From an uncultured Lentimicrobiaceae bacterium (GTDB lineage: Bacteria; Bacteroidota; Bacteroidia; Bacteroidales; WCHB1-69), in the NCBI GenBank assembly GCA_964598505.1, contig CAZRCF010000001.1, forward strand, positions 73,480 through 137,479: a stretch of 64,000 nucleotides of DNA, in the 5' to 3' direction. Below are positions 54,103 through 54,449 of the stretch, piece after piece; within the stretch, counting starts at the first letter, position 1, and every line of letters begins with the position of its first letter. The notes beneath the pieces were generated by a model. It did not search any database. It had not been told where the DNA came from and saw only the letters and a program-made list of their open reading frames with translations. A program made the position numbers and the translations under genes.

Positions 54103-54138
54103 CTTCTTACTCCTCTTGTATAATGATTTTATTAAATG

Positions 54139-54442
54139 AAAGTGAGATGGGATTCGATACCCATACGTTGACTTTTTAACAACCAAATTTGTTCAAATCC
54201 TCTTGGGCTATGCTCACCCTCATATTGTGTACCTAGTAACCTTTCGGTGTTCGGCCTGCCGAAAAGTAGTAACGTGCATAACTGCTACTCCCCGGTGTTT
54301 CTCGTCAGTTTATAGGCATAGATACGCCTCGGAATGATGTCCGATATTGTCCGGTTTGGTAGGGCGTCTAGTTCACCATCTAACGTTTGGTTGTATCCAA
54401 CAAGTCCATACTTTGCGTCTTTATTCTTTCGCCACTCACTTT
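54139..54442 (-). ncRNA. structured RNA candidate (ssb leader) closed by a tRNA-like acceptor/T-arm helix
   Basis: This ~300-nt GC-enriched gap has no RBS-led ORF. The 5' AAAGTGAGTGG pairs with the 3' CCCATCTCACTTT. A T-arm-like ATGGG-TATCGAAT-CCCAT abuts the 3' strand. Several local hairpins are present, including TTCGG-CAGG-CCGAA and AGGCGT-ATCT-ATGCCT. Confidence 0.4.
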
Positions 54443-54449
54443 CTTTATC

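Follow-up and report, generated by a model that had tools for sequence, protein, structure and literature searches.

The 64-kb stretch of DNA analysed here (the window: 64,000 nucleotides (nt), positions 73,480 to 137,479 of contig CAZRCF010000001.1 in assembly GCA_964598505.1, from an uncultured Lentimicrobiaceae bacterium) belongs to a 256.7-kb contig, and it raises the question of what occupies a 347-nt gap (54103-54449) that separates the stop codon of a gene for a 241-amino-acid (aa) protein from the ATG, at 54102, of ssb, in a region where the flanking genes all lie on the minus strand. The gap stands apart from its surroundings in composition, as an initial annotation made from the letters alone had pointed out, with a G+C content (GC) of up to 0.48-0.49 against 0.30 window-wide, and the structured element which that annotation noticed in it is confirmed. 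As read from its sequence, the gap encodes a predicted 306-nt non-coding RNA resembling a transfer RNA (tRNA), located at 54442-54137 and built on a frame of putative tRNA-Leu origin, into which a large central domain is inserted. The same frame is present in dozens of unrelated phages and prophages. By comparison of these copies the predicted frame is real, conserved and covarying, and the insert that it carries is freely exchanged between close relatives. All coordinates are those of the window unless another locus is named, and the element is read on the minus strand.

The evidence that carries this identification is comparative. The family was sampled with one exact D-arm 16-mer taken from relatives of the window phage, GGCGGAAGATAGACGC, and its members were identified by scripted pattern-and-pairing scans instead of a covariance model, since the 190-nt length excess of the window's insert is larger than the hit window of such a model. 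The 16-mer was found in 88 stretches of viral-contig DNA, where a T precedes all 92 of its matches, and the same sequence extended by a leading GT (an 18-mer) was found in 26 contig stretches of bacterial genomes, 14 of them with the complement of the acceptor strand directly after the hairpin; a combined D-arm and T-loop pattern gave no match in bacterial genomes. Altogether, 77 of the 117 D-arm matches have the acceptor complement directly after a T-type hairpin, as against 0.1 in shuffled downstream sequence, and 68 distinct RNAs of 82-296 nt (median 142) are predicted. Each of these has its own acceptor stem. In a frame alignment of 38 sequences including the window, wherein the central domain was replaced by an artificial AAAAA spacer, 99.1% of the cells are paired and double changes occur in 11 of the 15 pairs; compensatory changes affect all seven acceptor pairs, with three to five pair types each, and four of the five T-stem pairs, and the covariation score is 0.767, compared with 0.188 after shuffling and 0.108-0.148 when the 3' partners are slid by 1-3 columns. 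Covariation with homologues, one of the checks that the initial annotation had proposed, is thus found in the terminal and T stems, both among the relatives at the same locus and in the wider family.

Two types of 3' arm exist among the 68 RNAs, 30 having a 5-base-pair (bp) stem with the loop UAUCGAAU, which is the commonest loop of that type and also the one in the window, and 38 having a 7-bp stem with the loop UGNRAGU. The window D-arm reads UG-GCG-AAAGAAUAAAGA-CGC, so that its stem and both flanks match the consensus and its loop is 3 nt longer. The bases before the T stem in the listed members are AU, GU or, less often, UU, the U being constant, and the interval from D-arm to T stem ranges from 32 to 244 nt. 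The inserts that fill this interval are GC-rich and well folded, and some of them hold additional T-arm-like hairpins. The carriers include jumbo phages, small phages and prophages, and the members in bacterial genomes lie in phage-like regions of Paenibacillus, Chryseobacterium, several Clostridia and other metagenome-assembled genomes. As one exact 16-mer has already given 68 members, the true family is probably much larger.

In the wider family the genomic settings are tRNA arrays, the vicinity of transfer-messenger RNA (tmRNA) genes (L098 and L106, two of the collected loci) and positions upstream of terminase genes, with no ssb nearby. Nineteen loci lie within about 3 kb of a gene for the terminase large subunit, mostly upstream of it, and a sigma-70-region-4 regulator stands just upstream of the element in six loci and the small terminase subunit downstream in six. 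At L106 1447-2050 and L098 3764-4300 the member sits about 120 nt downstream of the phage tmRNA gene, and in L106 the acceptor 5' strand of both is GGGCGCG; with a tRNA and a weak YrlA-like match (32 bits) just upstream, several tRNA-shaped RNAs are clustered here.

At the window's own locus, the 241-aa protein served as a synteny anchor (50 homologues; 57 + 6 related loci), by which about 70 related loci were gathered from jumbo phages. In the closer relatives a homologous element occupies the gap directly upstream of ssb, and its distance to the ssb start is constant in the phage clade, at about 36-45 nt; in L020, an extra open reading frame (ORF) separates the 241-aa gene from the element, which remains with ssb. 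The shared features are the 5' motif AAAGUG(R)G-UG-GCG...AGACGC, which includes a D-arm frame, GGCG...AGACGC, conserved among the relatives, and the T-loop UAUCRAAU. Both stems vary by compensation: the acceptor variants comprise GUGAG/CUCAC, GUGG/CCAC, GGUGAG/CUCACC, AGAGUG/CACUCU and GUAUG/CAUAC, and those of the T stem AUGGG/CCCAU, GCAGG/CCUGU, ACAGG/CCUGU and AUAGG/CCUAU.

The central domain, however, is unconserved between these relatives, whose whole elements measure 98-261 nt against 306 nt in the window, and no relative has an anticodon arm, the 98-101-nt versions having a pseudoknot or other hairpins instead. L075, the nearest relative whose sequence continues past the anchor gene, encodes a flanking protein 80% identical to that of the window and has the same frame, in which the central domain is a short, unrelated H-type pseudoknot; its contig stops inside the T-arm. 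This pseudoknot domain is common to L075, L013 and L022 and shows one compensatory change. The possible pseudoknot lies at L013 2219-2317, L022 1877-1977 and L075 from about 930 to the contig end at 1018, and its pairings would be CUCUG/CAGAG interleaved with GAGAAC/GUUCUC (AAGAAC/GUUCUU in L075), with A-rich loops. Other relatives have unrelated central hairpins, or hairpins inserted in the D-loop (L020, L038 and L081), and L007, L015 and L077 have a variant without the T-arm. L081 2195-2530 holds tandem tRNA-like elements between the 241-aa homologue and ssb, a first one of 116 nt without a T-arm and a second one of 216 nt with a T-arm and a hairpin in the D-loop.

The frame can be traced to a particular tRNA. 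One of these phage contigs also has genuine tRNA-Leu genes, with the D-arm GTGGCGGAATTGGCAGACGC or GTGGCGGAATTGGTAGACGC, and the pattern of the phage tRNA-Leu D-arm, GTGGCGGAATTGG(C/T)AGACGC, finds its counterpart in the family, which reads GTGGCGGAAGATAGACGC. On these sequences, the family D-arm is best described as a tRNA-Leu D-arm in which the G18G19 segment of the D-loop has putatively been shortened and the GG lost. U8, A14 and A15 are retained, and a U always stands before the T stem. Tertiary pairs U8-A14 and A15-U48 follow established rules of tRNA structure, the latter pair being typical of tRNA-Leu, and with these bases kept both pairs would be possible in the family. The acceptor GTCAGGG of the L165 member is identical to that of a neighbouring gene which ARAGORN calls tRNA-Leu, and this fits an origin by duplication. 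The central domain begins 6-10 nt past the D stem, stops 1-5 nt short of the T stem and is usually closed by a helix (judged by eye for L154 and L164 and from the fold for the window); therefore, it would occupy the site of the anticodon arm and the long variable arm.

An origin from tRNA-Leu could also mean that the element is a decaying tRNA-Leu pseudogene with junk insertions and has no function, for which the clearly tRNA-Leu-type D-arm, the patchy occurrence among relatives and a degenerate version in L016 could be cited. We consider this very unlikely, as the 16-nt D-arm and the T-loop are identical across phages that differ widely in GC and host, every acceptor stem is fully paired by means of compensatory changes, and the loss of the GG segment and the T-loop variants are derived features common to the whole family and not random decay.

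In the window itself the frame is compatible with the predicted fold of the whole element (Table 1). A 331-nt stretch folds better than 100 of 100 dinucleotide shuffles (z = -2.36), and imposing the stems of the acceptor, D-arm and T-arm makes the fold just 1.1 kcal/mol less stable (-74.6 against -75.7 kcal/mol for the free minimum). Two pairings described in the initial annotation, the terminal one between AAAGUGAG and CUCACUUU and the T-arm-like hairpin with its 8-nt loop, lie where it had placed them, and the hairpin occurs once in the window. The third, GACUU (54406-54402) with AAGUC (54174-54170), which had been proposed as an anticodon stem, exists and is kept unprompted in the constrained fold, where it is lengthened by a 9-bp helix, ACAACCAAA/UUUGGUUGU (54394-54386 with 54187-54179), although it is predicted from a single sequence. 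These two helices would close the central domain, in which several hairpins are predicted, one of them of 11 bp (54295-54285 with 54269-54259). The region that had been judged about 9 nt too long for a D-arm turns out to hold a genuine one (GCG, 12-nt loop, CGC), followed by an 8-nt linker. Position 3:70 is G-C and the discriminator is U in the window copy, which, as was also noted at first, has neither G3:U70 nor an encoded CCA.

Table 1. Coordinates of the tRNA-like element, its parts and the adjacent genes in the window
Feature	Position	Strand	Remarks
Terminal (acceptor-like) stem, 5' strand, AAAGUGAG	54435..54442	-	Pairs with 54146-54139
Canonical 7 nt of the acceptor-like 5' strand	54441-54435	-	Partner 54145-54139
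UG connector (tRNA positions U8 and G9)	54433..54434	-	Columns 8 and 9 invariant in the 38-sequence frame alignment
D-arm	54415..54432	-	GCG stem, 12-nt loop AAAGAAUAAAGA, CGC stem; tRNA-Leu type without G18G19
Central domain, 237 nt	54170..54406	-	Predicted to stand in for the anticodon and variable arms; constrained and centroid folds
AACGU linker	54165..54169	-	Terminal GU (54166-54165) is the conserved R-U before the T stem (U48 position)
T-arm-like hairpin, AUGGG-UAUCGAAU-CCCAU	54147..54164	-	5-bp stem, 8-nt loop
Terminal stem, 3' strand, CUCACUUU	54139..54146	-	Abuts the T stem; no CCA after it
AU-rich ssb leader with Shine-Dalgarno CAUUUAAUAAAAUCAUUAUACAAGAGGAGUAAGAAG	54103..54138	-	Outside the folded element
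ssb, two OB folds	53404..54102	-	Pfam SSB 1.4e-45 in two stretches; phrog_44
241-aa gene, upstream	54450..55175	-	Synteny anchor for collecting relatives

The element matches none of the known RNA classes for which we searched. Rfam 15 gave no match at the gathering threshold in the whole window or at E <= 10 in an 801-base stretch around the element, and no family match in 13 relatives or 14 wider-family loci; ARAGORN, in its tRNA and tmRNA modes, made no call at the element, whether in the window, 50 related loci or 88 viral loci, its only calls in the window being three ordinary tRNAs elsewhere. These results agree with the initial view of a structured RNA with tRNA-like ends that is neither a canonical tRNA nor a tmRNA, and they leave little of two of the identities that it had offered. 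A tRNA with a large intron is contradicted by the lack of an anticodon arm in every relative, those of 98-101 nt included, and by the negative ARAGORN result in 50 loci, and a group I intron splitting a tRNA by the absence of an Intron_gpI match at E <= 10. A tmRNA-like molecule is contradicted by the presence of a D stem, the G-C at 3:70, the absence of any tmRNA or tag peptide call by ARAGORN and of an Rfam tmRNA match at E <= 10, and real tmRNAs were detected separately, next to family members in L098 and L106. Nor is the element a tRNA in other respects: members with a central region of 32-33 nt, the class II size, fold differently there, GG is missing from the window D-loop AAAGAAUAAAGA, and the T-loop is 8 nt long, against 7 nt for UUCRANY. 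Membership among YrlA and Y RNAs was rejected on the absence of RF02553 and RF00019 matches at E <= 10 and on the order of the arms, which is acceptor, D, insert, T, acceptor.

The ends of the members show signs of being of tRNA type, and they bear on a role in translation, whether as an intron-split tRNA, a tmRNA-like rescue RNA or a chargeable mimic. Chance would place NCCA directly after the acceptor in about one of the 68 members, and 8 have it; position -1 is most often U (31 of 68) and the discriminator, position 73, most often A, yet the discriminator is unconserved. Such a role would account for the geometry of acceptor and T-arm, for the members that end in ACCA and for those adjoining tmRNA genes. 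However, no member has an anticodon arm, ARAGORN and the Rfam models of tRNA, tmRNA and group I introns are negative, G3:U70 is missing, ARAGORN detects neither a tmRNA nor a tag peptide, the window copy has a discriminator U and no CCA, and the discriminator varies over the family, so that a translational relative of tRNA is largely refuted and extremely improbable.

Other identities were rejected as well. A protein-coding remnant with homology, which had been named as the outcome that would speak against an RNA, was not found: six-frame translations contain stops, and for the longest two of the open stretches Pfam gave no match and PHROG a single insignificant one (E 0.056). A mobile element of the miniature inverted-repeat type, raised because L001 lacks the element, was discarded, since no second copy exists in the window and no target-site duplication was seen in the flanks; what resembles an inverted repeat is the covarying acceptor stem. 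BLAST against cultured phages returned no match for the window element or for a 146-nt family member, and for a 118-nt member it returned a match of the T-arm only, to a 78-nt RNA of phage phAPEC8 and to an ordinary tRNA in phage SP01. The phAPEC8 RNA (L174 1944-2033; JX561091 60013-60102) is an unannotated tRNA-like RNA of about 78 nt between tRNA-Asn and tRNA-Thr, with the acceptor GGACUUG/CGAGUCC, the T-arm GCAGG-UAUCGAAU-CCUGC and an internal motif, CAGUCGCCAA, also present in L007 and L086; its T-arm matches many other Phapecoctavirus genomes.

What, then, might such a frame do in an operon? A promoter-like motif of the phage, TTTCATATAGAAATA, is not present upstream of the element, and no terminator was found between the element and its neighbouring genes. 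With no promoter motif of its own, the element would be transcribed within the RNA of the polB-to-ssb operon. The minihelix formed by an acceptor and a T-arm is the shape recognised by RNase P, by the 3' tRNA-processing nucleases and by the CCA-adding enzyme. In Mycobacterium smegmatis, the tRNA mimic YrlA is cleaved by RNase P and receives CCA (PMC4201824). From these two points the frame would serve excision and stabilisation, and the reading to which we lean, if only slightly, is that the tRNA-Leu-derived scaffold lets tRNA-processing enzymes excise an RNA with a variable insert from the operon transcript and stabilise it. First, the host enzymes, including the CCA-adding enzyme in some members, would recognise the minihelix and cut the RNA out; the tRNA frame would then protect the excised RNA from nucleases, as an engineered tRNA scaffold does, and the product would be a stable small RNA whose working part is the variable central domain. 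As a side effect of the excision, the ssb message would be parted from the upstream genes. The tRNA-type signs at the ends of the members agree with this reading, as does the company of tRNA arrays and tmRNA genes in which members occur. The fast turnover of the insert suggests lineage-specific binding or decoy functions. More tentatively, we suggest a natural tRNA-scaffold system common to many phage lineages, possible though on present evidence doubtful, in which diverse domains are slotted into a near-invariant frame and the inserts act, for example, as aptamers or as decoys against host defence nucleases that target tRNA.

Several points weigh against excision of a working RNA. The same place holds a plain hairpin in the close relatives L040, L047 and L066; in L016 the stem is degenerate and only the T-loop sequence is kept; and the element is absent from L001, L021, L030, L046 and other more distant relatives. 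Such plain, degenerate and absent versions would suit a cis element that can be dispensed with no less than an RNA that acts in trans. In the window's lineage the terminal helix is lengthened to 8-10 bp by pairing of positions -1 and -2 with 73 and 74, and no CCA is encoded; pairing between leader and trailer hinders or shifts cleavage by RNase P. The 8-nt T-loop and the D-loop without G18G19 may also alter the elbow that is read by RNase P and other enzymes. The sequences of the frame alignment were chosen for their pairing, and therefore the fair test against chance is the shuffle control (77 of 117 against 0.1). Finally, the internal structure of the 237-nt insert is a prediction from one sequence, homologues of this insert being absent from the relatives collected, of which the closest have a different insert (L075) or are truncated where their contig ends (L004, L012 and L014).

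The plain hairpins lead to the strongest of the other explanations, a purely cis-acting signal of punctuation or stability, by which the transcript would be cut before ssb, or the 5' end of the ssb messenger RNA (mRNA) capped, and the insert would be functionless. The fixed position upstream of ssb in the clade, kept even with an intervening ORF in L020, is in keeping with it, as are the lack of a promoter or terminator of the element's own and, in the wider family, the many copies at operon heads, where a sigma-70-region-4 regulator precedes the element and terminase genes follow it; t-elements, moreover, define mRNA ends in Arabidopsis mitochondria (PMC1920247). However, such a signal requires no structured insert of 40-240 nt, yet the inserts are GC-rich, well folded and maintained, many members belong to tRNA arrays or adjoin tmRNA genes, settings with no mRNA to punctuate, and CCA is encoded in 8 of the 68 members. 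We therefore judge punctuation in cis unlikely.

The proximity to ssb admits another cis role, a translational operator to which SSB or another factor would bind, with the fold modulating access to the ribosome-binding site in the manner of T4 gene 32; the initial annotation had considered a tRNA-mimicking leader and, as a separate option, an autoregulatory or stabilising ssb leader of the gene 32 sort. The constant spacing of 36-45 nt to the ssb start in the clade bears out the part of this idea that concerns position, and relatives have kept the unstructured, AU-rich segment that separates the fold from the Shine-Dalgarno sequence. But the wider family has the same frame in dozens of phages with no ssb nearby, which makes an ssb-specific role of the gene-32 type unlikely as the general function, and the predicted structures leave the Shine-Dalgarno unsequestered. 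An ssb leader resembling AAAAUCANUAUACAAGAGGAG occurs in relatives both with and without the element, and since the AU-rich leader is kept where the fold is missing (L021, L025 and L030), the fold would not be needed for ssb expression. The chance that the element is an ssb operator thus seems slim. The conserved TATACAAGAGGAG ahead of ssb is not a repeated motif in the window. The window SSB (53404-54102, minus strand) has 232 aa with tandem OB-fold SSB domains, as in most close relatives, and the SSB of the more distant L001 (3001-3423) has 140 aa and one domain.

A partner for the element in trans might be sought 4.8 kb upstream, where the same strand has a Ro60/TROVE-vWA gene (59229-60842) that relatives also keep: the element could be a Y-RNA-like partner of the phage Ro60 (Rsr), ending in an acceptor-like stem as Deinococcus Yrn1 does and not in the arrangement of YrlA. 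Bacterial Y RNAs are tRNA mimics encoded within about 4 kb of rsr, and Rsr has been proposed to bind a GNCGAAN0-1G motif close to the YrlA 5' end (PMC4201824); the D-arm of the window, and that of L020, reads GGCGAAAG, which fits this motif, and a megaphage element in L003 that shares an identical 21-nt T-arm has a weak YrlA match (23.8 bits, E 0.013). However, the window gave no Rfam match to YrlA or Y_RNA at E <= 10, most relatives and the wider family read GGCGGAAG, which falls outside the motif, L084 has a Ro60 (43% identical) but no element, and tblastn found a Ro60 homologue in none of the 88 viral family loci within the DNA fetched. No consistent co-occurrence of Ro60 and the element was seen, either in the 10-kb flanks of the relatives or by tblastn on the viral loci, and better-placed candidates flank the Ro60 gene itself, namely a structured stretch on its downstream side and, upstream, a conserved non-coding RNA of about 560 nt. 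We consider a Ro60 partner quite improbable.

The Ro60 neighbourhood has features of its own. The gene encodes a 537-aa Ro60/TROVE-like protein with a Ro60-type vWA domain (59229-60842, minus strand; PF25045, 7e-7; phrog_850, 'RNA-binding protein') and is kept upstream of polB in relatives (519 aa in L082; 507 aa, 43% identical, in L084). Directly upstream of it, at 60875-61445 on the minus strand, lies a GC-rich non-coding stretch of about 560 nt, which begins at a copy of the promoter-like motif, ends with a terminator-like hairpin, is conserved in L082 (2085-2665) and contains GGAUUACAUAYGCCGC or AUUACAUACGACUA three times; one of its hairpin loops differs as GAAA and UACG between the window phage and L082. 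This stretch has no Rfam match and is probably a large structured RNA, better placed as a candidate partner of Ro60. In a Listeria phage, abundant RNAs lie just upstream of an Rsr-like gene (PMC12282133). Just downstream of Ro60, a tRNA-Met (59148-59222) is followed by 180 nt (58968-59147, minus strand; -64.2 kcal/mol, z = -5.2) with a long end-paired stem, a perfect GGUCGC-AUAC-GCGACC hairpin and a terminator, mostly missing in L082, where only the tRNA and the terminator remain. The L003 element (4729-4880, minus strand, of a 446-kb IMG/VR contig) stands in a dense tRNA array and has the order T-arm, closed acceptor hairpin (CCACUCA...UGAGUGG), D-arm; its YrlA match is weak and full-length, with a gathering score of 69 for that Rfam model, and the 21 nt of T-arm identity with the window include the 8-nt loop.

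Among known systems, the species 1 RNA of T4 (rnaC) is the closest classical analogue. It is a stable phage-encoded RNA of 139 nt, larger than a tRNA, encoded with tRNA genes, and at its 3' end an acceptor-type strand comes after the T-arm CCGGG-UUCGAAU-CCCGG; its annotation says no more than 'small, stable RNA', and we know of no function for it. It differs in its canonical 7-nt T-loop, in having no tRNA-Leu-type D-arm, in its place in a tRNA cluster and not in a protein-coding operon, and in an acceptor pairing that is imperfect (5 of 7 by our reading), and judged by eye it has no sequence similarity to the element. From tRNA-Leu itself the family takes the 7-bp acceptor, the UG connector and the D-arm frame GGCGGAA...AGACGC of phage tRNA-Leu genes, while having no anticodon arm, no G18G19, and a T-loop of 8 nt (UAUCGAAU) or a 7-nt UGNRAGU on a 7-bp stem. 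The tmRNA (ssrA) resembles the element in its terminal acceptor stem and T-arm, in its large, structured and pseudoknotted body and in that phage copies adjoin family members; however, G3:U70, a tag frame, a CCA that is encoded or added and the lack of a D stem all set it apart from the window copy. In the tRNA scaffold that Ponchon and Dardel are said to have engineered in 2007, an RNA replaces the anticodon arm and the chimera is reportedly processed and stabilised by the tRNA machinery of the cell; it has in common with the family an invariant frame and a freely exchangeable central domain, and it is man-made, whereas a natural parallel is what we suggest here.

YrlA (RF02553), a partner of Ro60/Rsr, is likewise a tRNA mimic, one whose D and T arms hardly vary while the rest does, is found in phages, and in M. 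smegmatis is cut by RNase P and given CCA (PMC4201824), and the window has a Ro60 gene at 4.8 kb. Its order, however, is T-arm, closed acceptor hairpin, D-arm, and it ends in the Ro-binding stem, whereas the ends of the element form the acceptor stem; the D-arm sequence of the element differs, there is no Rfam match, and the family at large is unlinked to Ro60. The t-elements of plant mitochondria and the mascRNA and menRNA of MALAT1 and NEAT1 are tRNA-like folds in longer transcripts that have no working anticodon and are cut by tRNA-processing enzymes, which sets the ends of the neighbouring RNA (PMC1920247; PMC8457004). They are eukaryotic or organellar, unrelated in sequence, tRNA-sized and devoid of a large insert, and the processing of the phage element is only proposed. 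YrlA, tmRNA, mascRNA and t-elements are functional parallels and not relatives of the family. While tRNA mimics are a known kind, the frame, its spread and its modular insert appear undescribed: the frame has no entry in Rfam 15, no call by ARAGORN and no description in the full-text literature searched.

If the scaffold reading is true, the family would be a modular, fast-evolving class of phage non-coding RNA that current annotation tools do not report; it would explain recurrent unannotated GC-rich gaps in phage genomes, provide a natural counterpart of a widely used RNA-expression trick and offer variable RNA domains open to functional screening, for example for anti-defence activity, and it might illuminate why T4 retains its species 1 RNA. 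If the element is only a processing signal, phages would use tRNA-like punctuation within protein-coding operons.

The remaining observations concern the surrounding genes. The 241-aa protein has no match in Pfam or PHROG. A promoter-like motif, (A/T)TTT(C/T)ATATAGAAAT(A/T), has 11 minus-strand copies with at most three mismatches, where 0.8 would be expected, always on the coding strand, for example at 61426-61443, 60849-60866, 58344-58361 and 52137-52154; it precedes polB, Ro60, the large non-coding RNA and tRNA-Gln, and not the tRNA-like element. The family B DNA polymerase (56226-58319, minus strand) has only 697 aa, and the Pfam polymerase domain is matched only to position 200 of 453; with 695-700 aa the polymerases of the relatives are just as short, so that a local truncation is not the cause, and the rest of the polymerase may be encoded elsewhere, as a split polB. 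In the replication module of the relatives, a gene of the IS605 OrfB/TnpB type stands between DUF488 and a 180-aa gene, and HNH endonuclease genes lie upstream, the loci of these mobile-gene insertions being L010/L082 (408-1589 / 7908-9089), L004 641-2020 and L005 30-695.

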